The notes under the pieces are model-generated. The model made no database searches. It was not told where the DNA came from and worked only from the letters and a program-made list of their open reading frames with translations. A program made the position numbers and the translations under genes. Source: Takakia lepidozioides (taxonomy: Eukaryota; Plantae; Bryophyta). Taken from it: DNA of 64,000 nucleotides. Below, piece by piece: positions 30,730 to 64,000 of the stretch. The stretch is from NCBI GenBank assembly GCA_030704615.1, contig CM060732.1, positions 36,518,001-36,582,000 of the forward strand, in the 5' to 3' direction. Each line of letters opens with the position of its first letter. The first letter of the stretch is position 1.

Positions 30730-33611
30730 CTAAGCCCTCTTCATGTTCTTCTCTGGCCAAAGACAATTCAGACCGACGACATCCTCTAATATTGTTTGCG
30801 GTGGGACCTCTTCCTCGTTAGGGTGGGGCAAGACACAATTGGCAATATAGATATCATTCACCTCAACCCGCCACAATCCTTCAGGTATAACACGGCAGTG
30901 ATATGTATCTTTGCCAGGCACACCAGTGACAATTCCACTAGCAGCCCTGTCTCGTGGTAAATGAGGATCATACAGGCTGATTTTGTCCTTCAACTTAAAT
31001 TGCACACAACACCCACCATAAAACCCACATTAATCAACCCATGAAGACTTACATGTACATTGAAAACTAGATAATGAGGACCGTCCAGTATAAGCAATCA
31101 CTCAAAGTGTAGAGTACTTTGGGTAGCATAAGAATATCTGCAACTGTGGCAGGGGGGTTGATATTTGGGGGTTGCCTTTGAAGCGCTGTAGTTGGTGCAC
31201 TATCGGTGGCAATATCAAGAGTGGCTTTCTCAGCCTGCAAACATCACGCCCAACACCCCTTAACAGTTACGTTTAGCAATGCATCTACTAATAGTTTGAA
31301 GTACCCAACATGTAAATGGCCACATTGTACAGAACTGATAGCCAACAGGTGCATGCATGCTCACCTCTAGTACGGAAACTGTTGCATGGAGAGGTGCCTC
31401 CTGAAGGCCCACCTGACTCTTACTCCCACTAGAACTTGGTGTTATGTCACCATTTGCATCAGTCAAGGACTTTGTGCCTATGGTAGCAGTGGCTCTGGTT
31501 ACACGCTCTCGTTTTCGCATGTACTTCTTCTCAGCTCCCTTCACGATGGCAGGGGCGGGGTCCTCTGCTTTAGTCCCCTTCTACATGCCAACAAAACAAC
31601 AAGGTATAGTACATGAGTACGTTTTACCATACCTGATGCATAGAATTCAATAAATAGATCATTCATGAAATGTTTTCAGAGTCAAAAACAGAAAGCCCAA
31701 TGACATGAACCAAGATAAAGTCTTTGAGGGCGTACCTCTTTCTGTGGGGAAGTTGGCTTCACATGCTGATCTGCCAACCCCCTATTGTCACCCTTACCAG
31801 CACTCTCGGTGGAGCAGACGTCCTCACCAACAGCCAATATTGCTGTCCCGCCAGCTCCACCTCCCTTACGTGGCAATTTATCAGGAATTCCCTTGCGCCC
31901 CAATTTTACTTGGGTCACCACAAGGTCCTCAATGGCAGATGACTTTGGCTTTTCCCCAGCCTCAAGAGGTTCTCCCTGCACGCAAGCAAAACATACCAGA
32001 GCAGTAAACTTCAAAGTCAACTAACACTGAATGGATGACAACCACAAAAATAAGTTGGGTAAAGGTGCACAAACCACCTTCTCCGTAGCAGTCTTGCATC
32101 CCAAGCCTGCGTCGGAATCGCAAGGTTCAATAACAGTACATATTGGGATAGTAATTGGAGGAGGGGCGGTTGCTGACATTCCCAACATTATTGCCATCAA
32201 TGCATCCAGTTTTTTGCTATTGTCCACAGAAGCCTTAGCAACTTCTGCTTTTATAGTGGCCAATTCGCCCTCAATCGTCGGGATCTGAATGTCTGCCAAG
32301 GTAAACACACTGCCCTCAAGGGACGACAGTCGAGACTGCATCGCACTGCCCCCTCCCTATAGAGCCAAATAAAGAGTCATAATCAGCCCGCATGGCCTGG
32401 CACTGCTACAGCAAAATGAATGCAACAAAAAAAAAATACCCACACGCCATTTACCTGTGCACCTCCAATTGACTGGGAGCCAAAACCCTTGTCCGCCTTC
32501 GATGCGTGTGCCAGCTCAGTGATGCTTGGACTTCGTGCTCTCTCTTTCTTCTGCTAGGGCCACAACAAAAAAAAATTAGCCCCTATTCATCCAAACAAGT
32601 GGGGCGTTTACAGAGGCATGACTGTAGTGACAGTTTGCAACTACCTCACAGGGCAGAGATCTCCATCACATACATGTGTATATATGTACATACATATAGA
32701 TGTATACATATACTAAAATGTGGTACAGATATTCATATTACCAAGCGTCGGGCCTGTCCAGCCAACCCTGCTCTTCCAACCCTCGATGGGTTAGTAACAT
32801 TGGATCGTGCTCTCTTCATGTTCTCACTCTCTTTCTTGCCCTTGGGGGAATCCCAGTACTTCACCAATGCATCCCAATGGCAGGACTCTACACTCGGAGG
32901 GCATAGACCTCCAGCCAACCACACCAGCTTTAACTTTTGGCGGTGTATTTTTATAATCCTCCCACATGCTTTCTGGAACTTGTCAACGCTCATAAGTTTA
33001 GGATAGTACTCAAAATCCTCGTCCATGGATTCCTTAACCTTGGCCATGTCACTGGGTTTCTGCTTGTCTGCTAGCAAAATGCTAGGATCAAGATATCTGA
33101 TGCAGAGTCCCCTCTGCCAATAATCCTTCCCCTCACACCCCTGGTCTACTTCCCCCTTAGAGTTTAGTTGTACCTTATGCGGCTTCAGCCCAACAGATTT
33201 GCGGGCTTTCGCATCAGTTTCATGTTCCTTTGTAGCCAGCATTTTTTGTCTTTTTTTGTATGCCGCCTGCGACGCCACATCCCCTTGTTGTGTGGAATCT
33301 TGATCATCACCAGCAGGGGGGGTGAATGGAGGAGCAGCACCATTAAAAGGGGGGCATGCCCGCTGCCCACCAGCGGCGTTGCATGGAGGGCCCCAAGTTT
33401 GGGCACCTCCTTGTACCCAAGCTCATTGGGGTCCTCCATTGGACCCACTTGGAATCCATGACCACGTGTTCGTCGTCTGTGGAGGGGCCATGGGCTGTTG
33501 CCAAGTAGGTGGTCCTTGCTGCAGCCACGTTTGGCCACCTCTGGATTGCACCCATGGGCCATTCGGGCCTTGTTGCACCCATGTCGTAAGTGGACTAGTA
33601 GCATTCGCCAC
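30730..33611 (-). pseudogene. CACTA ORF2 / TnpA-like gene remnants, multi-exon
   Basis: 32733-33278 reads HWDALVKYWDSPKGKKESENMKRARS (Ptta/En-Spm Transposase_24-like). 30730-31005 reads GIVTG..YHCRVIPEGLWRVEVNDI..LPHP..LEDVVG..CLWP (Tnp1-like C-terminal domain). Coiled-coil and low-complexity exons lie between. Confidence 0.65.
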
Positions 33612-36141: not shown

Positions 36142-38763
36142 TGTGACATTGGAGAAAATGCAGATTTCGATAGCCTTCAGGCACTGTCCCCCTTATCAGA
36201 TCAGCCAATACCTAGGTCATTAGATGGTGCCACAACTCTAAATAAAGAAGACATGGCTATGTTGGCTACCATTCAAGCGGCATTTGTGCAACCAACCGCT
36301 ATTCTAGTTGAGGAAAGTGATTCAGAGGGTGACGAATATGTTTCAAATTCAGAATAAAGTTTATTGTTGGAACCATTTGTTCAATAGCATCATGCCACAA
36401 TGGTCTGGCCACTTGTCTGTTTTTCAAAGTCTGTCACAGCTAAACAAACCACTTAAAATTTTTCATGTATCACCCAAAAAGTGGTACCAATCACTTGTTG
36501 TTAGGCAACCACTCATGAGCAACCACTAGAATAGTGGTTCCAATTACTGCAGTATCTTTCACCACCCACTCTCCACCACTGTCAAAGTGGTACAAATCAA
36601 TGAGGTGTCTTTAACCACTCAAGATCAAAGTGCACTGTCCCCGTCCACGTGGAATATTATATTTATGAATTAAAATATATTTCCAAATCATAAATCACAA
36701 ATAAAATTTGAATTATTACACGTGGAGCAACAAGTGGTTTCAACCACTTCCCATCACTGAGGTGTCTACTCACAATGTACCACTGCACTCGTCCACGTGG
36801 AATATTATATTATATTAATTAAAATGCATTACAAATAAAAATAATAAAAATAAAAACAAATTATTACACGTGGACTACTGAGTGGTTGAAACCACTTCCA
36901 ACCACTGTCTGTGATGCCACCGTGGCATTTCAATGGGATTAACCATTGGCAAGTGGTTACTAGTGGTAAATAGAGTGGAAAAAAACAGTAGTGGTTAAAG
37001 GGCCAGTGGTTATTCCATGTTTTTCTTCTAATGCAAGCTCGTGCAGAGTAACTGACCCAGCTCAGTTGCCACTCTTTTTGGACAAGGAAGCCTAGCCCTC
37101 AAATTCGGCAAGTATGTGCTAAATTGGGGATTCAAACATGATTACATGTTGTAGTGGCACTAACTGGAATTAGCATCTCAGAAGAACTAATGGGAGCGTT
37201 ATAAGCCATTGAAATATACTCCAGTTCATCAGGGCTATTTTGAATCATAGGAACAGTTTTTCCAACTGTGTCCCTCCATTCAGCAGAAGACCCCTCACTG
37301 TTAGACCTATAAGTTCTGCCAAAGATACTGTAGTGAGTTTCAAAGGTTTTGACAATGTCAACCGATGAAGTCACCACTGCACCTTTAGTAGTCTTTAGCG
37401 CTGGTACTTGCTGACCGTTTTTCAGCTTATACAATTGTTGAAGGGCCAACCAGAATTTCTTGTCATTACCACCATGGTGGTTTGAGTTTATTTCACTGTA
37501 TAACTTATCCCAGTATAATTTCTTCTAAGACCTAACAAGCTGATTGATATCTTTACGGAGCTGGTAGTACCTCGCCCACAATTCTCTGTTGGTTTTCAAA
37601 TTGCAGCACTCTTCATAGAGGGCTCGTCTCTCAGCTACCTTGAGTTTAATCTCATTGGTCCACCAATTAACAGCTCTACCGCAGACAATTAGTTTCCTCC
37701 CAATTATCTTGTCAGCCACGAAGGGAACGAAACTCTCCCAAGAGTCCACTGCTCTTTCGACTTCATTTCTTGCGTTATCAGAGCGAGACTGAAGTTCTTG
37801 GAGCGATTGGACAAAATGAGGGAGAACCTCTTGCAAGGCCTGGACGTACTCAGCCTTGACCTCCTCATTATGGAATTTTTCTATGCGCCACTTCCGAATC
37901 GAACGTTTCACAGATCTCTTGGTGTTGGGAAAACACCTTTGATCTCAGTCCAAACCAGGAAGTGGTCAGAGGTACCAATATCAATTGTGTCGATCAACAC
38001 ATTGGCACACTGGGGGATCAAATTTTTGTCCATTACGATATAATCCACAATGGAACGTTCCCCAGTTTGGGATTTCTCACGAGTCCACTGCACTTGGTCA
38101 TCTCTTGTCCTGTTATTCAAGGTCAATAGCTGAAGCTCTTCTAGACAGTTAATTAACCGTCTGCCATTAGAATTCAGCTCGTCCTCACCAAAAGGTCCAA
38201 TGATATCGTCCTGATGGAGCCCTTTGCCCACCTGGGCATTGAAGTCACCCAATAGCACCACCTGACCTTTGGCAAGGAACGAAGCACAGTCCAGCTTTAC
38301 ATCTTCGAAGGCTTTGTCTGCGTCAGCACTAAGGGTCCCCTCTGTGGGCATGTAAACCCAACCCACAAAGAGATCCTTCGTACTCATGCCGCCCTTCAGA
38401 TTCAGTTTTAGCCAGATACTATGCTCGTACCTCAAACCCTTGTTGATAATTTCACAATTGTCAAACAAGAAATCACGGACAAAGAATCCAACCCCTTTTT
38501 GACCGCGTTTGGCAGAGGCTGCCTTGATAGTACACATATTACCTGCCCATTTATAATCATTGACATCTCCAACCAATTTATCCGACATTTCCCATTTTTC
38601 TTGCCCAACACAGATATGAATATCATTAGTCCGAAGAACTTGTCCCACTTCGAGTTGTTTCCTTTGGTTGGTCAACCCTGAGAAGTTGAAAGTGGCTAGC
38701 CACAAGCCAGCCCTTTGTATGTGAATTGTTTGTCGTCTAGGTAGCTTGTGATTGCTCCTGGAC

Positions 38764-39050
38764 GGTATCAGAGCAAGAACATGAACAAGAACTAAAGTCT
38801 TAGACTAAAGCTAAAACTAAAGCTCTCCTCCCAACCATAGAAGCCACCATCATACTCTTGCACTTAGACTAGTGGCTTCACCCCCGAGCTTGTACAAGAA
38901 GGTCTCTAGAAAGTCCTACTTGGTCACTTCCACTTCCACTATGGTGACCATCCACCTTCTAGCCATTCACCTTCCAAAGGTGAGTTAAACAAGATAGTCT
39001 CTTAGACTTCTAAACCTTTGGCCTTCAAGACTCTTAGTCTTCTAGATATG
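38764..39050 (+). mobile_element. LTR-retrotransposon leader fragment starting at a tRNA-iMet primer-binding site, inserted in the LINE
   Basis: GGTATCAGAGC at 38764-38774 matches the canonical plant PBS (T)GGTATCAGAGC. It interrupts the LINE reading frame just upstream of APE. Confidence 0.5.
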
Positions 39051-40318: not shown

Positions 40319-42172
40319 CTAGTACATCCTTCCCCTACATTTGGTTGTGCCACAATTGCAGGCCCTGGTTCTCAAACTGCCATGGGTGTCATACACAGTG
40401 TCCAAGGTATAGCCATAGTCGTAGGTGAGCTCAGAGGAAGCCCGGATGTTCTTCATAGCAAAGAGCATGACATGAGGGAAGTTTAGGTCATGATGGTTAT
40501 ACAGAACACACTGCACAAATAAGTTGGGATCGCAGCTGTGGTTGATGAAACGTGACACGGCACCGCACTTTCTGCCATCAATGCAAAAATCTGCTCCATC
40601 GGGCCCAGGACTTTGCCGGGACTCTGAGGCCATCTCATCTGATGCTTCCCCCCACCGAACTTCATTCCCCTTCTTGAAGTCAAGCGCAAAAAGATATGCA
40701 TCATCATTGTCATCCAACTTGTTGGCTGTGTTTGTGTCTAATATTTCCCCTGTGAATTCGCAAATAAAGCTACCAGATGGAATAAAATTCAAGCAGCGAA
40801 CTCCCCAGCCTCTGTTACTTGTCTTGAAGACTTCCAGCTGGTGCTGAACGCCTTTCTGACTCACTTTGTTATAGCATTTTGCACTGCAGTGGCAATGAGC
40901 GCTACATTCATACACAACTTTCCTTGCTGTGACAAGATTACCTTCGAAATTGTACGCAAGCTGACCGCCATGGTTTTTGGCCACACATGAGCAGCTATTT
41001 GCATCAGAACACCCATCCTTGCAATCGCAGCATTGAGCAGAGGCTGGCCTGGGAATTCCAGCCGGAAACCTCACACTGGTGGTGTATTCAAAAGGTTCTG
41101 GGGCTGTCGGATCCATATTAACAACGCGGACAGCCACTGGTTCCATTCCCTCAGAAATGTCTTCTAAAACTACTTTATCATAGGGCTTGGATTTGCACAT
41201 GCCAGACCTCACCACAGCTGAGCCTAGCTTCTGTTGATCTGGCAAACGTCTCAGCCAGAACTTGAACACCATGAAGCCACTCTGTCCCCGAACCTTGTCA
41301 TACTTTTCAACCATGTACAATCCATCATAGGAGTATTCCTTACCCGAAGGACTGCTGGAGGTTCTACTTCCACGAATCACACGAACAGGCAAATTCAGAT
41401 GGCAGCTATTTTGCAGAGCAAGATTCCCTCTCCCACATTCTTGGCTCCCTCTCTGTCTCTTTCCGCCTTTGAAATCATTTCCACCCTGTCCCGTGTATAT
41501 TATCGTTTCGCCATTGTCCTCGTCATCTTCGTATCCTCCAGATGAGATGATGCTGCAAGCCACCCGTTTCATCCAACGGCATTGAGGACCAAGATAATCA
41601 ATCCCGGCTTGTGTCTGATTGTGTAGGCCAATCACGAAGAGCTCGATCCTATAAAAGAATTTGTCTCCTACTCTCACACCGGGAACAACGCCAACATCTC
41701 TGAAAACGAAACGGTCGCCGGTTGCCTTCATCATTAGCCATGCCATCAAGTCTGGCCGCGGTCCAATGCGACGGGTTGGCGCCTCTCTTCTTTCCTGTAA
41801 AGCCCGAGCTCGTTTATTCTGACAAGAGCGTCGAAGGAAATCAAACCTCTGCAATAACTGTCTGATCCGATTCCTAGCAACCTCCTCATCTGCCTCTCCC
41901 AGTAACTCACCGAAGTTCATAGTGAGAGGTGTTGAAGGTCCATGTCCTTCATGTGATCTCCGTGTGACTGCTTCGTCCTGTGTTTTCAGCTTCCCTTCGG
42001 GTCTGGATTGATGATCATGTTTGGATGCTAGTTCGTCCTCCGGAATGTCTCCACGACGGGATAAGCCGCATTCTGGTGACGAATCTAGTGCTGGAGTAAG
42101 CTTGAACCTTTTCACCAAGCAGTAGGCTGATGCATCGGTCTTGATAAAAGAAAAACCAACCGCCAATCCCAT
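40319..42172 (-). CDS. SUVH: SUVH-family histone H3K9 methyltransferase (SRA/YDG, pre-SET, SET, post-SET)
   Basis: 617-aa ORF: VPGVRVGDKFFYRIEL..GLH..QAGID, SGGYEDD, YTGQGG, YSYDGLY, Cys-rich pre-SET, RGWGVR, RFINHSC, ELTYDYG, CNCGTTKCR. The N-terminus may extend through small exons to about 42767. Confidence 0.95.
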   Translation of the reverse strand: MGLAVGFSFIKTDASAYCLVKRFKLTPALDSSPECGLSRRGDIPEDELASKHDHQSRPEGKLKTQDEAVTRRSHEGHGPSTPLTMNFGELLGEADEEVARNRIRQLLQRFDFLRRSCQNKRARALQERREAPTRRIGPRPDLMAWLMMKATGDRFVFRDVGVVPGVRVGDKFFYRIELFVIGLHNQTQAGIDYLGPQCRWMKRVACSIISSGGYEDDEDNGETIIYTGQGGNDFKGGKRQRGSQECGRGNLALQNSCHLNLPVRVIRGSRTSSSPSGKEYSYDGLYMVEKYDKVRGQSGFMVFKFWLRRLPDQQKLGSAVVRSGMCKSKPYDKVVLEDISEGMEPVAVRVVNMDPTAPEPFEYTTSVRFPAGIPRPASAQCCDCKDGCSDANSCSCVAKNHGGQLAYNFEGNLVTARKVVYECSAHCHCSAKCYNKVSQKGVQHQLEVFKTSNRGWGVRCLNFIPSGSFICEFTGEILDTNTANKLDDNDDAYLFALDFKKGNEVRWGEASDEMASESRQSPGPDGADFCIDGRKCGAVSRFINHSCDPNLFVQCVLYNHHDLNFPHVMLFAMKNIRASSELTYDYGYTLDTVYDTHGSLRTRACNCGTTKCRGRMY

Positions 42173-45100
42173 AAGCCGAGCTCGATAAATTTCGAAATTC
42201 TTGACAATCCCTCTGGAGAGAGAAACATGGTAATTTGTACATGATTCTAGAAGCTCAAGGTGCAGAACAAACCTGAAAATCGTCAGTCAATAGCTGTTCC
42301 CAATCAAATTGGCATCAACTATCAAGTCCATGACCCGGGCAAGGATCTCGGACGAACTCAAATATCTTTGACGAGTTCTCCCATAAGGGACCTGTAATGT
42401 ATATCTAGTACAATCTGGACAACAATGCTCCATCAACAGATGACGGCTGCAAGGAAAACTCAAAATACATGGCGTTGTACAAAACTCATGCAATCACAGT
42501 TGACGGAAAGCTTTTGACCTGCTTGGTTTTTGATGGTGCAATTGCTTCTGGATCCCAAGCACGGTTGTGCTCTTGCAGAGTGAGGGATGCTGAGTGCGAT
42601 GCCATAAGGTCTCGATGGTCGGCAACGAGTATGATCTCATCGCCGGGGAGCGACTTACTACTAAAATTAGAAGCAAATCCAACCAAATCATCGTCACCAG
42701 AGTCCACACACCCGGAGGATCCTGTATCATCCAAGACATCCTCTAATGGACAAAGTAAGCTGTCCATAGATCCCGATTAAACAAACAGTCTACAGACTTA
42801 CCGAAGATCCAGGAGAAGTGAAATGCTGCGCAACTCGATACGGTGCAAAGACAATGCTCCCTGACAGGTTAATTTGTTTCTGACCTACGTGTCTCCATTT
42901 CCCTTTCGATGTCCATGTTATATTATCAATCTAGGATCAAGAAGATCAATTGATGCTAGCTACTGCTGCAGATCCGTTCTTCACTCAATCTTCAAATTGC
43001 TGATACACTCAGGCTCCGCATTTACCTCTCTAAACTGCTTAGAACTAGAATTTATTAGTCTTGCACCCCATTACAACTGGTAATCGCTTGAACCTGTGAC
43101 TCGTCTCTCTCACTCATTCTACATTGAATAGGCTAGTTGCTTTACAACATGCTTCAGAGGGCAGGGAAAGGAGAAGTGATCACTTATATAGTGATGGAAG
43201 CAGATTCTCCACATTAAAGAAGGAAACAGGCCTCATTCTCTAACATCCGCAGATTCCATCTGCGGATTGGTCTCGATTTTCAGAATTCCAACACAGCACA
43301 GCGGGGATCCAATGTGATCGTATGTCGAGCAACTGAAATCGCAGACGGACGTAAAAATGATTGGTGTTGAGGTTGTGAACATGAGTGCTCAGAGGGGAGA
43401 TGTCGGTGTCAGTGAAGGGCTAGCGTGCAGGCCCACTTCGACAGATGATAGCAAATGCCGAGGCTGGCTGACCGAGGGAAATTTTCAACGGGCCAGTATT
43501 CGGAAAACGTTCTAAGTGAGAAAGGCTACTTATGTTCCCGCGTTCCCGTTCATTTTGTGATTGCCGTACTGACGTTCTCATGCGTTCAGTAGCTAAGTGA
43601 GGAAGAGAGAGAGTTGCAAAAGAATCCAGGCCTCCCGATGCTTACCTTCGATTTTGAATAACAAGCTGCAGATCTGTAGCGCTGACTAAATGGGATGAGG
43701 ATGTTGCAGGCTTGATTTGAGATCTGCAGCCAAATCTATCTGTAAGCAACGTCTCTTCCCAAGCTTTGGAGGTGGATTTTGATGATGAGTAGGAATCCAG
43801 AGTAGTTCTGTGGGAAAAGGTGAAAATATTGGAAATTGCTGTTGCTTTTGTTGAGAGGGTAGAGCCCGGGGTAGAGAGATGAGGCCGCACACCTCCAGAA
43901 TTCATATTGCCGGCATATTGCATGCCTCCCTTGACAGTTTTGTCCGAGGTTTTGTCTCCTCATTCGCCTTATTTGGAGGTGAAAGTTCAAGAATGATGCT
44001 CGTGATAGAGGGTCATGAAATGCTAGCAAAAGAATTATGAGTTAATGGAGCTAGACTTGGTAGTCCCAGTACTTCCAGAAGCCTACAAATGGTCAATTCT
44101 TGTTTCTGAATCTTCTGGCTATATCTGCTACAGATACCTTGTCTGGACCACCCATGCCATGTACGTCTCTCTTTCTCTCTTTCTAACGATCTGTTTATCT
44201 GGAACCAGCTAAAGACTTTAAGACTGAATCGTGTGCACATGGGATGCACGAACAATAGTTGGAAAGTTCTGACGGAGCCCTCTACATTAAGATCATCGCC
44301 AAACAAACCGGCTGTGGCTGCAAAGCTAAGGTATCTTGGAGTAGGAACGTGTAAGCTGCTCTCTGGTGCCCTTTCTTATATGTTGAGACCATGCAAAGGG
44401 TAAGGCACTATAACGTGATCAGTTCCTGATCAGTTTCACCCTTCTGATGTTTTTCAACTTGTCCACAGTTGTTCGAAGTTTAGTTTTCCTTGAGTTTTCG
44501 GTCAGTTCGAAAAATCACAGATGCAGTCTACAACACCAATGCCATTTGCATATGGTTGGTCTACTTTACGTCGAAGGAGCATTCTCCCACTTGGTTCATG
44601 GATCGCCCTGCCTGTTGTGGAATATGGTGATTCGGGTTGATTAAGTGAGGGATGGGCAATATTAAGGTTGTAGTTGTCTATGATCAGGAGCTACAGCACT
44701 ACTGATCTTGAGAAACTTCTACTTCTGTTGGAGTTAAATAATGATGATCGGCACGCGCAGCTTCTTCTGGTCCCGTTGTGAAGGGTGTGAGGAAATCATA
44801 TGTGAATGCATTGGGCAATCCTCATTCAATATTTTGCTTTCACCATTGTGTAGTGCTTAGCTGTGCCAGGAAGAGATTAAGGAAGTCCTGTGCAGGGTTT
44901 TAAAGGTGGTAGATAATTTTTAACGATTTGCTGGTGTCTGTGTATGTGACTGCGGGCCATATCCCCTCCATAGTCTTCCCCTCTTTCAGAATTTCTGCAT
45001 TGTAGTCATATTCATGTCCGACCATGCAGTTGAGGTAGACATCTGCACAACAAGTACGAACGTTTTGGTGTGTAAAATTAATGCCATTGGCTTGATCCCA

Positions 45101-51947: not shown

Positions 51948-54900
51948 CAGTGTTGGGCGGTTCTTGCCTTTGTGAAGGAACCTTCGGTTCCGATTCCACA
52001 AATTTTTGAAGAGACGGTTCCGGATCCGGATCCGGTTATTTTTTATTAAGGCGGTTCCAGTCCGGTTCAGGTTCTGACTTTTTAACATGGGGGCGGTTCC
52101 GGTTACCGGTTAGTTGCTGGAAAAAAAACACCGGTTCTCGGTTAGGTTCCGGTTCTTTTTTTTAAATATTTTTTTTTTAATTTTTTTTATTCTTCTGGAA
52201 AATTAGATGAACTGATCTGATTGGTCATACTGAATATTCAGAATTTTCAACTAAAACCAGGGAATTTATTAGTAAAACTGAAGTAAATAAACTTATATGT
52301 TTTTTGTGAATGTCTTTTATGGTAAGTTAAATACGCATGGTCTCCATTAAAAACGGAAAACCAGAGATTTTATAAGTTTTCGTACGGTGTAGCAAAGAAC
52401 AACTAAAACAAACTAACTACATAAGAATCTTAATTCAAAATACAAAACAAATTAAACATGTGTAATTCTATGGTTACCTTTTATGGTGCAGCAAAAGCAC
52501 AACTAAAAAAAACTACATAAATTTGTGTTTTTGGGATGATGCTTTGTCGATATAGCATACAACAAACTAAGTACACGGGATGTCACTGAAATTTTCAATA
52601 AAAATGACAAATAAACAAACTCCAATCAAAGGAGTATAGTGTAATATGTTGAACAATAATTTGTCTCTAAATCATTCTACCTCAAAGAGGTTTGTCTCTG
52701 CAATCAAGTCCTCATTCTCATCTAAGAGGATTTCTTCCCTATCCAAAAACTCTTTCATGGAAGTACTAAAGCAACCAACTCTAGCACCATTTGGCCAATT
52801 CTTGACTACACTCACAAGCATATCAAGGTTTTCAATATTTAACCTGCACCGTCTCAACCTTGTTATGACACCTGCAGTACTAAAAACCCTCTCAGCTTCA
52901 ATCTGAGATCCAACTATGCCCAAGATTAGCCATGCCAAAAATCCCACACACGGAAAGAGAGACTCGTGTTCTTTCCACCATTTCAAAGGAGCCACGCACT
53001 CACCCTCAATTATCTTCGTCCTTCTAAAATGTGATAGTTGTTCTCTTACTACTGTCAATGTCATGTCTTCATTGTGGTCATGCACACCAAATAAGGACAT
53101 CTCGTCCTTTGTGGAAGTGGGCTGTGATTGGGCCGGAGTATCCGGATGTAAGACCTTGAAACACTTTACCAAAAGATGCTCTAACATCATGCTATCATAT
53201 TGAGACACAATATGCAAAGCACACTCTTTGCCCACATATTGTGATACCAATGACAACCCCTTGTAATGTGGGTCAAGCATAAACGTGAACATATTGTGAG
53301 CTTTGCGCGATTGAAACCCTTCAAAAAAAAAAAATGGTTCCAAGACATATATCACCTCTCGAGCCATCCGCCATTCCAACAATGTCAACTCTGTTGAGAA
53401 ATCCCCCATGTAATGATCCACAATTGCAGCCCTGGGAGCACTACTTCCTCGCATGCGAATTGTTGTGCAATGGCTGCATTAAGAGCATCGGACAACAGCC
53501 AAAATCTCCCAGATTGATTCATAATGCACTCATGAACCACAGGCCCTAGAACTGTAGAAATTGATTGGGCAATGACCCACACTTGTGGACTTGGTATGCG
53601 AGACTGCGGTGTCAATGAGGTTTGCCTAGAGTAACAAGTGATTATGGCTTGCCTAAACTCCAAAGTCTCTTGGAAGATGATCACCTTGGAAGCAAACCGT
53701 GTCTTCACCGGAGTCTTCAATTTGCGGGGATGAATGCCGCTGTCCACACATGCCTTTGCTCATTCTTGTCTCCATTTGCCACTTTTTTTTGTCCAAGTAA
53801 TGGTTTTTTGCAACTCTGATTGGGCATTTTTTACAGAAACCGATCTCATATCTACGCATACTTTTGCGTCATTTGTTGCATACTGGCAACACTTAGACAT
53901 TGCATGCCCAAAACAGCTACCCACAAATGGAGAATCCAACCCCAAACACGCACATGAGACCACCGAATTTAAAGCATTGGTCAAAGTGGCCAAGTTACCT
54001 GCCTCATCTTTGACGTAAACAATAATGCGAGTATTGAGGCCATACTTCACAAGAAGATTGTTGACTTGATGTGCCATGGCAGCCCCATATGTGTCAGGTG
54101 TCTCAAACATGCCAAGAGTCACATGACATTGCTCCCACTGTTCATTAATAAAGTGCGCTATAATGACAAAAGTGTTAGTTCCCCCTCTTGACATCCACAA
54201 ATCAAAACTCACAGAGCAAGTAGCACAATTCTGAAGAGATAAGGACATGTAGCGCTCTTTCGTCTTCTCTGCCAAGATTGGAATGGCCTCATTCACAAAT
54301 GTCCGTCGAGAAGGGAAAACAATCCGAGGATTTTGCCTCAAAACCATCCATCTTAGCCAAGGGGATTCTACCAAAGACAGTGGACCAACTCCTTTGCAAT
54401 GAACAAGACTAAATCCTCATTGAACTGCTTCTGTTGATCATCATTTTGGTTGTATAGAGTGGAGCTTCAAAAAAAAAAACTATGTTTCCAAAAATGGGGC
54501 CGGACCTTTTTTTTGCTGGCCTACGGGCCTTCTCAGGTCCTTCATTTTCCTTCTCAATCCACCTACGCAAAACAATGTCATGTTCTTGATCCACATGCTT
54601 TCGAAGGGCAGAGATACCATTGGTTTTGTTATAGGTCACAATGCCCTTCTTGCTTGCAAGAGTAACACCAACAGGATGACATAGAACACACCTCATTTGT
54701 TGTGGATTTGTTATGTCCACTGGAGCAGAGTCTTTTGTTGCATAGAATGCCTATGTCGAAGCTGTGCGATTGTGGGGCTTCCAAAAATCCCATTGTTTTT
54801 GAAGTACTGGAAGCTGCGCCTCCACATCCAACACCGTGTGTGATGGCGAAACTATGGAAGATGATATTGCAGTCGAGGCTTGAAGAGCTGATGTAAATGA

Positions 54901-56025
54901 GGCTGCATGATGAGCATCCTCCGCAACATGGCACTCCACCAAAGCTCTCTCATTATCAACATTGATGTCAGGAACAACTTCCCTTTCTAGTTCATCGAAA
55001 ATATTGGGCTCCATGACGTAAAAAGCTTGTGGAACAACTCCTGTGTAAAAACAATGCAAACAAAGAATCCAAAAAGCATTTAATAATTGTGCACAACTCA
55101 TATATTTACAAAAGTTTGGAATGGTATATGGCTGGCCAAAACGAAAGTGTGGGGAGAGACACCGCACTACTCAATTTATTATTTCATATTGAGCTGAATG
55201 TTACATACATGGCCTATATTTAGATCTACGTTATTTTCTTTATCTAGTACATGTACATTTACATTTTCAAATTGCAAAAACTACCTAGCAAGTTGGGGGT
55301 GGACCAGTCTTATGCTTCAGTGGTCAGCTTGGCTACTTCATGACTTGGGAAATGATCTACAATGCCCCCACCACATATAAATAAATCAGTCATTGTTGTA
55401 CCACAACATAAAGAGTTATAACTAAAAATTATGAAGCTTTAAAGTGGGGTGATTGTCCACAAGAGGTAGGGGTTGGCTGTCAAGCCTTCTTGATATTTGT
55501 GCTCCCCTTTCCGAGTTCAAACTTTCACTATGAGAGGAGGAGCAAATCATCCCTCTGTTGTACCACACATTGGAAAAAATAAAATAAAAAAACTAAGCTA
55601 TTAAAGGGTGGGGGCTTACCATAGGATGAGGGGGCTGGTTAGCGGGCTCTAAACTTGCACTCCTCCTTCTTGTGTGTGATCTACATAGCAACAAAGTAGG
55701 GGGCTGAGCAGCCCCTTGCTATGCCAATTTTCTGGGAAAAAAAAAATATGCAACATTGAATTAGGGGCATGCTTATATGTGTGGTGGAACGGGGGCTGGT
55801 TGGCAGGCCTCCCTACTTGCCCTCTTTCCCTCCCATGCACGATCTACAATAGCAAAAGAGCAAGGGGCTAATCAGCTCCTCTTATATCACAAACTTAAAA
55901 TAATTAAGAAAATAAAGAACAATGAAGGGGAAGTACACGCGGGTAATGGGGGCTGGTTGGCGGTTCAAGAGGCCTCCTATTTCTGCTCCCTTCCCGAGTG
56001 CAACATATCACTATGAGGAAGGGCG
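51948..56025 (-). mobile_element. hAT DNA transposon; the other end is interrupted by the LTR element
   Basis: TIR CAGTGTTGGGCGGTT at 51948, CGGTTC subterminal arrays, internal transposase, repeated subterminal units at 55440-56020. Confidence 0.88.
52672..55014 (-). pseudogene. hAT transposase (BED zinc finger, DDE core, hATC dimerisation), with stops and frameshifts
   Basis: CVLC..GISALRKHV..H (BED), FPSRRTF, VSFDLWMS, VKDEAGNL, CFGH, KTRF, PLKWWKEHE..FP..LGIVGSQIEAERVFSTAG. Confidence 0.9.
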
Positions 56026-58797
56026 TGTCAAGTTATTTTACCACTAGTATGAAACTAGCTAGGAAATAGCTAGCTTTTACATATTGACATTTGGGATTGG
56101 CCCAAGTGTCAATCCAGGGGTCAAGGCAGATTTAGGCCCTGGAGTGGTTATCTTCACGGCAAGCGCGGAAGGCTCATCTTTCTCGAGTTGAGCCTCACCG
56201 CGCCTAGCTATGGCGCCGTAGTGTGGATTCCCCATGGCGTGGGTGGGGCACTTGGCTTGACTTGTATTTGAGTGATGAGGTTATATATGCATGAGTTATG
56301 CTTCAGCTTTGTGAGCTCTCATGAGCTTGTGCTTGTATTCTCTCTTCTTTATCACTCGAGAAAGATGAGCTCGTATCTGTGAGTGCCAGATACGAGTTAG
56401 TTGTAGCACTTGTGGTTTTTGCTTGAGAATGAGAGAAACCAAGTTGTTATGCAAGGAGCACCGTGGAGCTCTTGGTTGTTAGAAGCGGAGGCGATGTGGG
56501 TTACGAGGTGGTAGACCTTGGCATTCGATCTTCAGCTTCAGAGATGAAAGCACCATGCTGCAGGTAATTCCAGAGCACCTTGATGGTTTCAGATTGTGTA
56601 CATGCATGAGCAAGCACGATTGGGAAGAGGACCAGTCAAGAGCAGGTTATAGTGGCTTTGGTGGCAAAGCTGAGAACTGGACTTGGGAATGCGAGCTTTC
56701 ATTGTGAAGGATTGCAAGACCAAGCGAAAGGGCTGATTTGGCTTGGGGCAAATCAGTGCACTTTGTGGAGTATGGTGAGATTGGGTTTCAATCTCGAGCT
56801 TCAGCATTGAGAGGGCTCTTGTCATGGCAAGAGCAGGGCTGGAACAGGAGCTAAGAGGTGCGGCAAGGCCATGGAATGTGCACCTAGGGTTTCAGAGCTT
56901 GGAAGAAGAGCTCTTGCACCACAAGAGAAGTGTCTTGTGGCTGGAAATGTAAGCCTTAGGGTTTCAGGAGCTTGGCAAAGGCTGTGGAGTGCTTAGTCTT
57001 GTCTTAGAGAGCATCAAGGAGCCAAGGAGCCAAGATAGGGGGATGATATCTCTTGTGTGAAGAGTTGCATGTGTGGAGCATGTATTCAGCTCATTGAAGC
57101 TTCCATCTTCAAGCTTGGAGGGCAAGCAAGGAAGAGGGAAGGGCTGACTTCCCTTATGTGAGGGCAATGCATGTGTGGAGCATGCTATCAGCCTGGTGAA
57201 GGCTTGCACTTTCAGGTGTGGGAGTGCAAGAAAGGAAGGAAGGGGCTGGTTTCCTGTAGGGCATGTGGAGCATGCTTTCAGCCTGCTGAAGCTTGTATTT
57301 TCAGGTTTGTGGGTGCAAGAAATGAAGCAAAGGAGCTGATTCTCTTATGGTGAGAGTGGGGCATGTGTGGAGCATGCCTTCAGCCCATTGAGGCTCTTGT
57401 TTTCAAGCTTTAGAGAGCTAGAACGGAAGGTCTAGGGCTGGTTTCCACTTGGAGTGAAAGAAAAGCACTTGTAGGGCCTATGTGAGTTGGGGTTTCAACT
57501 TCAAGCTTGAAGGGAGCGCAACTCTTGAAGCAGCAGGTGTAGGGGGCTGGAATAGGCTCTAAGACAGATGCTATGGCCAAGGAGAGTGCTTGAATGAGTG
57601 CTCACAAGGGCTGGGAACCAGCAGGGCTTGGTTGTTTGCCATTGAGTTTAGTGGGTGTTTGGGGAGGCTAAGTGAGAAAGAAGGCTTGGTTTGTGGCAAC
57701 CACCTCATGGCTTAGGGCTACTATGGTGGTGTGTGGGAGCCGAAAGAGCAAGAATACCTTGCTGATTTCCTCACAGCCGCCATAGCTGGTGGAAAGAAGC
57801 CTAGAGTCCAAGAGACACAAACCCTAGCTTGGCGTGGCTAAACCCCTTGGAGAAATGGGCCCCCCCCCCCCTTTGGGGCTTGTGGGCTGTGAAGGGTTGT
57901 GAGGGGCTGTGCCCATGGCCTTTGGGGCTTGTGTGATGAGGGGCTGTGACAAGCCGTGCTGAGGCCTTTGGGGCTGTGATGGGCTGTGTGAGGGGCTGCT
58001 GTGACAGGCTGTGCCCAGTGGCATGTGGGACTGTGACGGCTGTGATAGTGAGTTGTGTGGGCCTGTGCTGGTCTGTGGTGGCCCGTGTTGACCTGTGGAC
58101 GGCCTGTGTGACTTGTGGAGGCACTGGTGGACTGCCTAAGGACTAGCATGTGGTCTGGAAGGCCGAATTTTGAAGCTCGTGGAGGGCGGTTTGAGGAGTA
58201 TCTTCATGATATTCCCATGGTCATGCAAGTGAGGGAGGAGGAGAGGAAGAGTGTTGGGATGTTGGATGAGGGCATGCTGGGGTTAGGCATTGCTTTAGCT
58301 TCTCTTCCTCGTAGTTTCCACCCTCTCATTAGGCCAAGACCTTTCCGTAGGTGGAGGCAAGAGTCAGTCCGGGTTGGGCTGGGGTGTCCTTGCAGGAGCA
58401 ACACCGTGGAGTTGTTTTTGGTGTGGGGAGTTGTCGTTCTGATTTCTTGTGTTTGGATCCCCTCCATACCTGCATGCTTGACTGTGCGCCATGCTAGTTT
58501 TTGTGGGCGCTTGTTTTTATAGGTGATTGGTCCGGATTGATCACCGGCTAGTCCTAGAGCATGCTGTCGATGGTGAGGCTGGGGTGATGACCAGCCAGAC
58601 CATCATTGTTTCTCTTGTGGTGTGAGGTTGGAGGTGATGACCAGCCAACCATAGGAGTGCTTGCGGTGGATGCAGGTACAGGTGTAGGCTATGTTAGGAA
58701 CTTAGTATTCCAAACCATAAGCCGCAACAGGTTCTCTACCCGGTTACCTTGTGGAGAGGGGGTTAGGGACATGTTCATGACCGGTTGAGTGTCAACA
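56026..58797 (+). repeat. Putative 5' LTR, about 2.8 kb
   Basis: TG...CA termini; abrupt junction with hAT subterminal repeats; non-coding, with internal tandem arrays (57060-57420 and 57880-58120); directly upstream of gag. The 3' LTR is not in the window, so the boundaries are unconfirmed. Confidence 0.65.
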
Positions 58798-58829
58798 CGG
58801 AGGTGCCACTAGTTGCGGGGACAGTGCCG

Positions 58830-60300
58830 TTCGAGCACTAGCGATACTAGTGGGTACACGAGACGAGGTGTGCGGTTTAGGCCACCTTCACCTCCTGTGT
58901 CTTCCACGGAAGGTTCTGATTCGGATTGTGAATCAGGAGGACTCATACCGGCGGTGCAAGTTGTTTCTTTGCCATTGTTGTGGGACACAATGGAGGAGAT
59001 GTATGGAGCTACCAAGGGGCCACGAAGGTACTTGGGGCGGTGGGCACCATCGAGTTGGATGATTTTATCCAAGAGTTTGATAGTTGGTGTGATTTGCAGC
59101 AAATGCGCAATCCACAACTATTTACGCCTTTCATGGCATGGAAGGGGCTGTTTCAGCACCTTGAGGGGCGCCTATGGATGATTACCATGAGTTCAGGCGG
59201 GGGCATGAGGTTGAGATCGAGGAGTGGAGGATGTACTGGTCACCCGACTATGTCTCCATCACTAGGGGCACTAGAGCCACGAGGGCAGTGGCTACACCTG
59301 CCGCTGCACCGGCAGCTTCAGCAAGTAGCAGTGGGACTGGTGGTACAGTAGCTACGACGTCCACCCAAGCCACTACCGCACCAGCACTAGCACCCGTGCC
59401 TGCCTTCAACCCTGTTGTGGAGTTCTTCGAAGAGTTGAGAGGGAACTACCAAGGGGTGAGGACAGACAGAGAAGTTGCGGAGCTTGCAAGAGTTCCAACG
59501 GAAGCCGACTGAGAGCTTGAGGGAGGCTTTCACTCGCATGAGGCGCTTGATAAATGTAACCCAAGGGGTTACGGAAGCTCAGGCAGTCCAATTCTGGTAT
59601 GGGATATTGGACAAGGAGCTGAGGAGAAGGGTGCGGGATGCAACTCTCCTACAAGCGGCCCAACCCACCTTAGCAAATGTGTTTTTGCTGGCAGAGCGGA
59701 TAGAGCTCAACATGGTGGAGGAACGAGTGGTCATGGTGGGATTTGCTAAGGAGACACCACGGGGTAGTGGTGCTCCTAGCCAACCACTACCTCAACGTGC
59801 TCAAGGCAACAAGGGGGCTCAGGTGAAGCTCAGGGAAGGGCAGAGAGGACCTCAGATGCAGGGGTCTCTCCCTCATTTGCTGGCCAACAACGGGCGGATG
59901 TGGTGTGCTGGACATGTGGAGGACCCCATGTCAAGAAGGATTGCCCAGAGGGAGGCAAAGGGCCGGCACATGCACAGCCTGCACGTTGCAGTGTGGGCAT
60001 TGTGGCAAGCACGGGCATGGAGAGGCCCAGTGTTATGGTTTGCATCCTGAGTTGCCCAGGCCAGTTCCAAGGGAACAATGGTGGCCGGGGGCGAGGTGGA
60101 GCAGCCCAGAGAGGACGAGGTGGCCAGCCACCAGGTGCAGGCCAAGGACGCGGAGGTCAGGGTGTTGACCAGGCATGGCCAACCGGCTCCAGCAGCTAGA
60201 GCAGAGGCTCGCTGCCATGGCTACAGCTCAGGTGGTACCGGCTCTAAGGCCGGATGGTCCACCTCCTGCTCCTGAGGGAGGAGATATGGGAGGCATGGGA
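58830..60300 (+). pseudogene. gag: Retrotransposon gag with two CCHC zinc knuckles, frameshifted
   Basis: IELDDFIQEFDSWC..WKGLFQHLEG; LQEFQRKPTESLREAFTRMRRL..QFWYGILDKELRRRV; knuckles CWTCGGPHVKKDC and CGHCGKHGHGEAQC. Confidence 0.85.
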
Positions 60301-60859
60301 TTCATGTGTGGAGCAGCACTACCACTAGTGCGTGGTGGTGGAGTCTGTTGCAGCCGTGACTCGAGGAGCAGCACGAGTTCCTGAGCCACGAGGTGCAGAG
60401 GTGGAGTTGGATCCACAGCGTGGGGAGGCAAGCCGTCAGGCTAGGCTTCCTCAGTCATTCACATTGGCGGAGACAGTGTCGACGCCATCCATGGCACCTA
60501 GTTCTCGCCCAACTGTTGGGGAGAGCTACACGGGGAGCACCACTACCTAGTGTTGCCAAGGCTACGGCAGCTAGTGTGCTGCTAGGAGCGGCCACATCTG
60601 TGTGCCAGGCTCCATTGTTCTCGGCTACCATGATTGCGACGCCGGGGGTAAGACCAGCTGAGGTGTTCAGGCTGGCAGCTACACTCTGTGAGAGTGGGGA
60701 GGTTACTTCATCTTCTGCGGAGATAGTGGGAGGTGTAGTGCCGGAGGGATCCTCGGATTTGAGGGTCAAGACTGCCACGGCGGCGCCATGGCAAGCTGCA
60801 GCTGCCAGGTTGATGGAGCTGCCAGCTAGGCCAGCCATTGAGCGCGCCATGGTGACACC

Positions 60860-61310
60860 TGGAGTTGTCATGTTAGACAACCAGGATGACATTTTCTGTT
60901 TGAGTGGACCGGCAGGCAAGAGGTACCGGCCACTGCGGGTCTTGTTGGACTCGGGAGCTCAGCCACTGATGCTGGGCAGAGCTGCTATTGCAGGCTTGGG
61001 CCTCACGGAGGCGGATATGGAGCCTTGTCCTTTCCAGATACAGACGTCTCTGGGAGGATCGGAGCAGGCTCGGGGCATGACACGGCGTGAGTTGGCTATC
61101 AGACTACGGCCGGATCACCCTACAGATGGCTCAGTGATGCGAGCCAAGGCCATTGTGACAGACGTCTCATACGATGTCCTGGTTGGTGGGGCAGTGTTGT
61201 ACCCCATGGGCTTCACCCTGGATTTTTGGGAGGAGTCAGCTTCCTATAGGCCTGCATGGCAGTCAGGGGAGGGCCGGCGTGTGCAGCTCCCTGTGACGTT
61301 CATAGGAGGA
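60860..61310 (+). CDS. Retroviral-type aspartic protease domain of pol
   Basis: RVLLDSGAQP (catalytic Asp at 60948) and YDVLVGGAVL, within ORF 60393-62312. Confidence 0.85.
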
Positions 61311-61619
61311 GTTGCGGTTGCCCAGCGAGGCAAGATGCCGACACTAGCAGCATTCACAGCGGCAGTGAGTTGGCCTAGAGAGTTGCTTGAGGGCAATGCT
61401 CATTCAGAGGATGTACACCTCCGGGAGAGCAGGATGACATGTATGGTATGGCGGAGTTGCCTACCATGGTTGCTCAGACTCCATTGTGGGGCACGAGCAA
61501 GGATTTGCAGCGGGATGCTGATCGACGGGTGCAACAAGCCTGGGTGGAGGCTTTTGTACCGTCAGGAGAGGAGGAGAGTGTGGGGATTGCACCAGGACCA
61601 CCTCAATTGTCTCCATTGG

Positions 61620-62600
61620 ACACCACACCTATTGTGTGGCAGTATCCGGATGAAGGCATTTGTCTTCTGGACTTGTTTGGCGGGATCAGCACCGGATTGG
61701 CTGCTGTGTTACAAGCAGGTGTACGAGTTCGGCGTTACCTGTATGTGGAGAGGGATGAGACTGCACGACGCGTTTCACTTCGCCATTGCTCAGTTGGTGC
61801 AGCGGTACCCTGAGTTGTTGTCGGTGTCTGCAATTCGTGGATATCAGCAGGCCTTGCCAGCAGACATTTCGTTGCTGGGGGCGCAGGATTTGGAGCGGGT
61901 TGGCTCCATTGATCTGGTAGTGGCAGGTTGGCCCTGCCAAGGGCATTCATCAGCCGGGCATGGCAATGGATTGCGAGACTCGAGGTCGGGTCTGTTTTGG
62001 GAGATGGTGCGGGGTTTTGCGCCACTTGCAGCTTCATCAAGCTGTATCTCCAGCATACATCTTGGAGAATGTGCCACTGATGGGCGATTCTCGGGCCAGG
62101 GTGATGGCCAGTGTGCATCAAGTCCGGTCGTGGCTTGGTCAGCAGTGTTGCTAGATGCAGCTACAGTGGGGTCACGGGCTCATCGTCCACGGCTATGGTG
62201 GACTAACTTGATGCCACCGCACTGCTCAAGCGTGCATTTGATGGGGTGTGGCAGCGGCCAACACTCACAGTGGATAACATTCTGGACACAGGGAGGCAGT
62301 CTCAGCGTGTGAGACACGATGACCGTTCGCCTTTGGCAGTGGTCAACAAGGTGGGTCAACCACGAGCAGCATTACCTACACTGCTCAGCTTCCCAGGATC
62401 GCATCTGATTCCGGGATAGTGGACCTGGCCTCCTGTGGGATGCTCAGTTGCAGCAGTTAGTGGAGCCTAATGCTGACGAGCGTGAGCGGGCAATGGGTTT
62501 ACCACTGGTACCACGGCGGTGTCGTCTCTTTCTGAGGCATCACGTCGTCAAGTGTTGGGGCAAGCAATGGATCTCAATTGCTTGACCTGGATTATCAGCT
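61620..62600 (+). CDS. C5 cytosine DNA methyltransferase domain inside the retrotransposon pol; about 6 single-base frameshifts
   Basis: Motif I LDLFGGI (61667), II YVERD, IV DLVVAGWPCQGHS (Cys 61935), V RSGLF, VI YILENV (62065), VIII AHRPRLWW (62184), IX ERERAMG (~62478), X LGQAMD (~62555). Confidence 0.9.
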
Positions 62601-62959
62601 TGGCTCTGGCTGAGCAACGCAGAGTGCGGAGTACACTTCCCTCAATGGTCTCTCTGCCTACCGAGACGGTACAGGCAGTGAGGGGGGGCGAGCATGTGAG
62701 GACCACGGGGTGCATGCATCCATGGCACACGTGGGAGGTGCTCGAGGTTCAGAGGGAGTTGGCAGCCAAGGCGGCTGTGATGTGATGGATGAGGTTGGGG
62801 ATTCTTCTCGGGTTGAGGAGGTCCTCAAGGATGAGATGATGGGGCAGGAGATGAGCCTTGTCATTGACTGAGCAGGCAGGGAGTACTGCTCAAGAGGTTG
62901 CAGCATAGCAACCACTGGACGCGTCCTCTACCTCTAAGCCCACTGGACTTAAGGTTGCA

Positions 62960-64000
62960 GTTACGGAGGACAATTGGGAGCCTGACATTGGACCCATTGT
63001 CACCGGAGGAGAGAGACGACGTATACGGCGGTTCCTGAGGGCTTACAGGAATTGCTTTGCCTTCAGTTTGAAGGACTTGGGAGCACTGAAGGGTCAAGAG
63101 ATCCGTATTGAGTTGGCCACTGACACGCCAATCTTTCGGAGACCCTATAGATACAGTGACATGGAGAGGTCTTTGATTCAGATGAGGACTCAAGATCTCT
63201 GGGAGGCAGGTTTGGTGGAGCTCTCTGGTGGAGAGTATGCTTCAGCCACAGTGATGCCAGCCAAGAAGGATGTCTATGGCAATTGGACGGAGAGACGTAT
63301 GTGCGGTGATTACCGGCCTGTAAATCGTCAGACCAAGTCCGATAAGTATGCCATGCCAACACCAGAGGAGATCTTTGATGCCATCGGGCATGCTAAGGCC
63401 TTTAGCACTTTGGATTTACGATCCGGATATCACCAGTTGCCAATCAAGGAGGCGGACAAGCAGAAGACGGCATTCTGGGAGATCAATGAGCACGGCAAGG
63501 ATTGCCTATATCAGTGGCGGTTCTTACCATTTGGGCTTAAGAATGCTCCTGCAGAGTTTCAGAGAGTCATGGATAGGATTCTAGCAGGGGTGGACTTTGC
63601 TCGGTGCTACATAGATGACATCATCATCTTTAGTGTTACGATGGAGGAGCATGAGAGACCTTCAGGTGGTATTGGAGCGCTTGAGAGAGCGCACGGATTG
63701 AAGTTGCATCCGGGGAAGTGCAAGTTTTTCCACAACCAGATTGAGTATCTGGGTCACATGATATATCCTGGAGGATTGGGGGTACAGCAGACTAAGGTAG
63801 AGGCCATTGCACAAATTCCACGCCCCACGGATGTGAGCCGAGTTCGAGCTTTCATGGGGTTGACAAACTATTATAGACGGTTTGTCAAGGGATTTAGTAC
63901 CATTGCAAAGGCTCTAACCAAGCTGACCAAGGTGGACCAGGAGTGGCAGTGGGAAGATGAGCAGGAACGAGCTTTTCAAGAGCTCAAGGCGAGGTTGACC
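62960..64000 (+). CDS. pol: Ty3/Gypsy reverse transcriptase and connection domain; open to window end
   Basis: Manual translation: PIFRRPYR, YASATVMPAKKD, RMCGDYRPVN, FSTLDLRSGYHQ, KTAF, LPFGLKNAPAEFQRVMD, CYIDDIIIFS (63608), KCKF, YLGH, RAFMGLTNYYRRFVKGFS. Confidence 0.95.

Follow-up and report, generated by a model that had tools for sequence, protein, structure and literature searches.

Why should a transposon bear an enzyme of the class that silences it? The question has been open since 2018, the earlier cases lying in algae that are hard to manipulate, and it is raised again by the right-hand end of a 64,000 nt stretch of the genome of the moss Takakia lepidozioides (contig CM060732.1 of assembly GCA_030704615.1, forward-strand positions 36,518,001 to 36,582,000; hereafter, the window). 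A first-pass annotation had described there a Gypsy long terminal repeat (LTR) retrotransposon encoding its own unpermuted C5 cytosine methyltransferase between protease and reverse transcriptase (RT). That description holds (PF00078 and PF00145 matches, with matches to gag and, weakly, to protease). The element belongs to a high-copy Ty3/gypsy group in which a frame for Gag, protease (PR) and a DNMT3-type methyltransferase is closed by a conserved TAG. We consider it somewhat more probable than all other readings taken together that this stop is occasionally read through, that the enzyme is made at the level of Gag, and that it methylates complementary DNA (cDNA) in the particle. The features that bear on this are:

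56,026–64,000, plus strand: Ty3/gypsy element; 5′ end at 56,026 (depth step, and a TGTCA start as in relatives), 3′ end beyond the window edge
58,816–60,200, plus strand: gag with zinc knuckle, frameshifted in the window copy (tblastn to the open relatives P0122 and P0188; weak PF03732 and PF00098)
60,927–61,290, plus strand: aspartic protease, LLDSGA at 60,942 (weak PF13650, E 0.017; 46% identity to Marchantia P0008)
61,619–62,620, plus strand: DNMT3-type C5 methyltransferase, motifs I–X in normal order, Cys codon at 61,935 (PF00145, E 3.4e-8)
62,906–62,914, plus strand: in-frame TAG, then CAA CCA (CAR-YYA context); same place in families A and B
62,919–63,022, plus strand: predicted RNA stem-loop with a 15-bp basal stem (62,919–62,934 with 63,006–63,022)
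62,909–64,000, plus strand: second frame, RT with YIDD at 63,608 (PF00078, E 6.8e-28; 75% identity to Calypogeia P0002)

All of the methyltransferase motifs that had been claimed after the protease and before the RT were found, in the order stated (LDLFGGI at 61,667; GWPCQGHS, with its Cys at 61,935; ENV at 62,065; RPRLWW at 62,184; ERERAM at 62,478; LGQAMD at 62,555), and the Pfam search proposed for this segment returned PF00145 in a single unjoined frame, above the curated cut-off. Seven in-frame pieces give 316 codons with 72% identity to the open domain of a relative, L033. Against PDB sequences the L033 domain matches DNMT3A best (E 1.3e-11), then HhaI (4.5e-4) and DRM (8e-4 or weaker), and a structure model from a 13-sequence alignment (predicted local distance difference test, pLDDT, 70.9) matches DNMT3A at E 9e-18 with a template modelling (TM) score of 0.80 on the target. 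By sequence comparison and modelled fold the domain at 61,619–62,620 is DNMT3-type and not Dcm-like; of the earlier label 'Dcm/DNMT3-like', the DNMT3 half stands and the Dcm half falls. The domain is unpermuted and intronless, and its key residues are present. The ratio of nonsynonymous to synonymous substitution rates (dN/dS), an earlier suggestion for comparing copies, is 0.083, 0.10 and 0.147 for the methyltransferase in three family B pairs (RT, 0.044–0.054); families A and B compared give 0.28, and the window copy against L033 gives 0.08, both near saturation of dS. Judged by these ratios, the methyltransferase is under purifying selection, and it is almost certainly a selected family trait of the land-plant elements.

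The first-pass annotation had also anticipated one open reading frame for protease, methyltransferase, RT, RNase H (RH) and integrase (INT). For the clade formed by the window element and families A and B, a single PR-DNMT-RT frame is wrong. Between Gag-PR-DNMT and RT-RH-INT-PHD there is an in-frame stop, with CAR directly behind it, in 24 of the 27 loci of this clade and in 0 of 32 loci of the sister family C, as counted in 59 RT-anchored sources (23 of 82 sources, without an RT anchor, were left out). Of the three loci among the 27 that lack this pattern, one reads TAC, another TAG TAA, and in the third the anchor failed. In family C the DNMT lies inside the Pol frame with RT, and L076 is open from DNMT into RT. 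The stop of the window (TAG CAA CCA) lies 131 codons upstream of the RT motif MCGDYR. In L031 the Gag-PR-DNMT frame closes at TAG and the RT-RH-INT-PHD frame runs on in phase from the very next codon, with a single stop and no out-of-frame stretch in between. Annotated Marchantia proteins of 1,278–1,281 amino acids (aa) end about 96 aa past motif X, as family A does; the putative stop in Marchantia is placed by these protein ends, the junction DNA having been read in the 59 anchored sources.

The context of the stop (CAR-YY) is conserved along with it, and the exact sequence UAG-CAR-YYA is found in the window, L031, L062 and L063. On the plus strand of the window CARYYA follows only 2 of 771 TAG triplets. 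CAR-YYA after UAG is the readthrough signal of tobamoviruses such as tobacco mosaic virus (PMC2754532, PMC2194720). Downstream, a predicted stem begins 10 nt past the stop (+14) in all four junctions folded (window, L034, L031 and L062; z −2.4 to −4.0), its tile ranking first or second of 23 in each; the window value (z −2.97) is the lowest of the 23 tiles there. L033 and L063 do not reach these two ranks, nor do two loci of family C at the corresponding position. When arms were swapped, own-family arms gave −12 to −25 kcal/mol and cross-family A/B arms −5 to −13.5 kcal/mol; the arms of the predicted stem change together between families. By analogy with the viral signal, the conserved stop is quite likely to be leaky and read through.

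If so, translation would mostly terminate behind Gag-PR-DNMT, while a few percent of ribosomes would read through to give RT, RNase H, integrase and PHD. Retroelements require about 20 Gag per Pol (PMC2194720) and, with the stop after the DNMT, the amount of methyltransferase would roughly equal that of Gag. It would be packaged together with Gag, its domain would be released within the particle by the protease, and there it would likely methylate the new cDNA, CG being the probable target if it resembles DNMT3A and SymbioDIRS-Dnmt3. Related SymbioDIRS-Dnmt3 domains are described as methylating CG in yeast (PMC5890265). Insertion would then be guided by the PHD finger, and the likely gain would be a new copy that arrives already marked like host DNA.

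Several observations weigh against this reading. Family A has CAA CCC after the stop, not YYA, an in-frame ATG two codons after it, and TAA at 6 of 20 stops. In the window copy the motif X frame reaches an earlier TGA at 62,783. Around the window stop no variant at or above 4% was seen among 603 (X2) and 579 (X1) contigs of one sample, but the approximately 80 nt round the TAG are nearly invariant anyway (2 variable sites), so that this check shows the state of the family and not selection. By z-score the stem signal is absent in L033 (−0.2) and L063 (−0.6); of the possible partners within about 800 nt, the cognate arm pairs best in just five of eight loci. The near saturation of dS between the window copy and L033 counts here as well. 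The nearest tested enzyme, KnitGypsy-Dnmt3, was inactive in yeast, a result given by its authors as 'inconclusive' (PMC5890265).

The strongest competitor, itself unlikely, accepts the stop as real but has RT and integrase made by re-initiation, from a spliced RNA or from a separate transcript; the methyltransferase would still be made at Gag level. The ATG of family A would suit re-initiation, and gene models P0008 and P0151 bridge the stop, joining DNMT to RT over a gap. Ogre elements splice between gag-pro and rt. However, the window, L031 and L062 have no in-frame ATG close behind the stop, whereas TAG-CAR, the frame and the position of the stem are conserved, and the uninterrupted phase of L031, with its one stop, leaves no out-of-frame stretch between the frames.

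Marginally less credible is that the main targets of the enzyme lie beyond the particle, in integrated copies or host chromatin, where it would serve the element as a brake on itself or bring de novo methylation to the host. Synthesis at Gag level would go far above the need of one cDNA, Marchantia carries many copies (three on the V chromosome), and ideas of a brake and of spill-over are discussed in PMC5890265. Set against this, part of a Gag polyprotein is, in established retroelement biology, freed only after assembly, and fused, Pol-level forms persist in family C and Closterium. That the domain has been retained as a nucleic-acid binder or RNA modifier, and not as a DNA methyltransferase, is improbable: the inactivity of KnitGypsy-Dnmt3 in yeast and the poorly predicted target-recognition region of the model (pLDDT <50 at 243–270) would fit such a role, but the catalytic Cys-Gln, the motif VIII Arg residues and the SAM-binding (S-adenosylmethionine) glycines are invariant in 13 of 13 aligned members, and the modelled fold matches DNMT3A.

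Relatives were found on named plant genomes. Searching with the RT brought up proteins of two layouts, RT-RH-INT-PHD and DNMT-RT, from Marchantia and Closterium, along with RT relatives in Calypogeia, Coleochaete and Klebsormidium; the hosts identified by domain searches were Marchantia polymorpha, M. paleacea, Calypogeia fissa, Riccia sorocarpa, Sphagnum fallax, S. troendelagicum and S. tenellum. Relatives are present on chromosome-scale plant records. There are many copies in Marchantia, where three cluster members lie on the V chromosome and the full-length Gag-PR-DNMT frames of M. polymorpha are annotated as 'hypothetical proteins'. The profile search gave 439 clusters at 50% identity (E up to 1e-30), with 119 representatives carrying the full domain: 48 end soon after it, 41 have it after RT, two run into RT and 28 are unclassed. 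Pfam was run on 25 long representatives, and some of the 48 early-ending ones may be truncated by their contigs; the claim for land plants thus rests on the named genomes. The 41 of 119 representatives with the domain after RT (P0361, P0364, P0377 and others) make up a large sister group in which the same methyltransferase lies between RNase H and integrase; one of its proteins, P0398, also has a G-patch. The P0279 cluster has a 533-aa frame that starts 83 aa upstream of the methyltransferase, on contigs of the same size as those of the RT frame (P0001 cluster), and may represent a family with an additional break between protease and methyltransferase.

In the RT tree the window element nests with Calypogeia, Marchantia and the Sphagnum-like family A, a position that points to a seed-free plant as its most likely host, and Klebsormidium RTs fall in the same clade as these elements (support 0.998). 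When the DNMT and RT trees of 66 elements are compared, 14 of 17 and 16 of 19 well-supported splits are shared, a pattern that suits an old capture with the two domains inherited together since. Both trees join the stop-bearing elements in one clade lying inside the fused forms, and the stop arrangement therefore looks derived. The trees were made with FastTree, midpoint-rooted and read without a clade test; the DNMT tree was built without named Klebsormidium or host DNMT3 sequences, three short RT matches were left out of the RT tree and two of 68 elements out of the comparison, and some family A and C loci may be one genomic copy assembled twice. IMG/VR gave no match with the window frame and, with the alignment, distant phage methyltransferases alone (30 loci, 26–51% identity over short stretches), which were kept out of the trees. 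In L037 (9–650) a family A element is flanked by the 3′ end of a family C element, and the two families therefore occur in one host genome. L031 (CADCWO010000201.1) is a whole element inside a contig binned as a cyanobacterial genome, with an RT labelled cyanobacterial in NCBI and UniRef (P0213); it is likely to be stray plant DNA.

The notion of a one-off captured fragment, contaminant or assembly artefact, for which the 16 frame changes of the window copy and the prokaryotic bin of L031 might speak, is refuted by the even depth over DNMT and RT, the chromosome-scale plant records, the purifying selection and the congruent trees; the same results bear out the first-pass view of a segment shared by family copies in land plants.

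At 56,026 summed contig depth, which is not copy number, rises about 50- to 150-fold (X2, from approximately 4,500–8,200 to 300,000–1,100,000; X6, from 12–21 to 190–1,400) and is even over methyltransferase and RT; run X12 has loose ends upstream of 56,025. The window copy is broken, with 16 frame changes in 58,816–62,752, six of them inside the methyltransferase. In-frame stops in the same interval number just two, both within a poorly aligned linker, and over 1.7 kb an X8 contig differs from the window copy by 15 substitutions and 19 gap letters. Most decayed copies of families A and C carry 1–9 stops per domain. Given the few stops and gap-rich difference here, as against those stop-bearing copies, uncorrected assembly indels in a high-copy repeat are at least as likely a source of the frame changes as true decay. 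Observed/expected CpG is 0.52 in the element, 0.45 in the long interspersed nuclear element (LINE) sequences and 0.49 in the remaining window; the element being like the others, this carries no information on self-methylation.

The order gag-PR-RT is present in the window; RNase H, integrase and the PHD finger lie downstream of RT in relatives, beyond the window here. In relatives a PHD finger closes the integrase, its best matches being those of CHD4, PHF12, KMT2D, UHRF1 and KDM5. Many such PHD fingers read histone H3 unmethylated at lysine 4 (H3K4). Towards the 5′ end two further features are seen:

56,026–56,450, plus strand: likely 5′ repeat A (promoter-bearing), extent uncertain, assigned by position only
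57,072–57,429, plus strand: degenerate direct repeats (families D8 and D17) in a 2.8-kb leader

Repeat A of the window scores marginally against that of L060 (36; best of 60 shuffles, 35), and blastn of this region against the repeats of relatives gave no match. In relatives of families A and C (L060, L076 and L081) the repeat order is A-coding-B-A-B, with a purine run ahead of B and 2 nt separating the inner B from A. Ordinary paired full LTRs flanking the coding region are lacking in these three, and the window 3′ end lies beyond the window; the earlier term 'LTR retrotransposon' is thus right as to its Ty3/gypsy domains and not as to paired LTRs. KnitGypsy-Dnmt3 is described as having DIRS-type repeats with gypsy domains, the DIRS layout being A-coding-B-A-B (PMC5890265). 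Termini are TGTCA and GACA or AACA, and perfect 4-bp target duplications (CATA, TACA, CCAA, GGTC, CCAC) flank five of seven loci, three found by script and two by reading. CG-targeted insertion, as in Phygy (NCGN), was rejected, the duplications not being NCGN. No tRNA-type primer site was evident by eye after repeat A in four loci. The inner B-A junction (L060, 17,147–17,715; L076, 15,048–15,692; L081, 15,074–15,711) resembles joined element ends with a 2-nt spacer, yet the duplications are of 4 bp. How a DDE integrase, making 4-bp duplications, inserts termini that start with A and end with B from an A-coding-B-A-B layout is a separate puzzle.

The other genes of the window are plant genes, assigned by the Atlas as far as Streptophyta, and no tRNA gene was found in it. 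The embryophyte host had been argued from PLS-type pentatricopeptide repeat (PPR) and CYP716 genes; the former is supported by the 303-nt triplet repeats, the latter just as a cytochrome P450.

2–1,561, minus strand: PPR gene, truncated at the window edge, with 303-nt triplet repeats
8,939–10,990, 18,943–19,491 and 37,135–38,804, minus strand: three near-identical pieces (96–99%) of one LINE family
16,533–18,569: second P450
26,088–26,807, plus strand: P450 exons, the last shifting frame right after the heme motif (pseudogene or assembly indel)
32,736–33,422: Ptta/En/Spm-type fragment
40,322–42,286, minus strand: intronless SRA-preSET-SET (SUVH-type) frame of 655 codons
about 52,000–55,200, minus strand: broken hAT transposase, directly upstream of the element

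Since Klebsormidium RTs share its RT clade, the window element is, on sequence, related to the published Klebsormidium element and does not represent a new capture. KnitGypsy-Dnmt3 of Klebsormidium nitens, as described (PMC5890265), likewise combines a gypsy domain set with an unpermuted, intronless Dnmt3, DIRS-like split repeats and purifying selection, but it is algal and its DNMT is placed within the Pol ORF, whereas here, in land plants, the DNMT comes last in the Gag-PR frame, ahead of a conserved stop. In the 2018 paper the capture is assigned to the K. nitens lineage (PMC5890265), and a 2025 paper and a 2026 preprint (bioRxiv 10.64898/2026.05.21.726589) use the wording 'streptophytes'; related prior work is found in PMC12344493, PMC6453930, PMC12885004 and PMC11982613. 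SymbioDIRS-Dnmt3 (the CG-active one), SymbioLINE-Dnmt and EpiLTRs are also retroelement-borne cytosine methyltransferases, but are reported from other hosts and classes, with tyrosine recombinase or LINE machinery, or with DAM and a chromodomain beside a DNMT4-like enzyme (PMC5890265; bioRxiv 10.64898/2026.05.21.726589). Tobacco mosaic virus, murine leukemia virus (MuLV), Tca2 and SIRE1 share an in-frame stop with the same class of 3′ hexamer, and MuLV also a downstream RNA structure, the stem here being predicted; in MuLV, Tca2 and SIRE1 the stop is described at gag/pol or pol/env, whereas here protease and methyltransferase precede it (PMC2754532, PMC2194720). Phygy of Physcomitrium is likewise a bryophyte non-chromovirus gypsy of about 8.6 kb with a 4-bp target duplication, but by its listed description in REXdb it has an NCGN target, a tRNA-Trp primer site and no extra domain (PMC6317226). 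Host DNMT3 and DRM share the DNMT3 catalytic fold, as far as the model indicates; unlike them, the element enzyme is unpermuted, lacks PWWP, ADD or other companion domains, and has a PCQG loop, not PCND. A literature search, outside of which most subscription papers lay, met no report of these elements in land plants nor of this stop; the supplementary trees of the 2025 and 2026 works may include bryophytes. The Gypsy-Dnmt3 kind was already known from Klebsormidium, and what is new here is its lineage in mosses and liverworts and the predicted readthrough site after the methyltransferase.

The position of the stop predicts a Gag-level dosage of the enzyme, implying that the element has a large need for it, and the copies in Marchantia polymorpha make the question of why a transposon carries it addressable in a genetic model. 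Such copies may also confuse bryophyte methyltransferase inventories. More tentatively, these elements may be an old green-plant lineage surviving in mosses and liverworts, whose land-plant branch put a leaky stop behind the captured DNMT3; the enzyme would be made at capsid stoichiometry, pre-methylated DNA would be delivered by a PHD-guided integrase, and the elements could bring de novo methylation to the genomes of bryophytes, Marchantia among them, by a route so far unrecognised.

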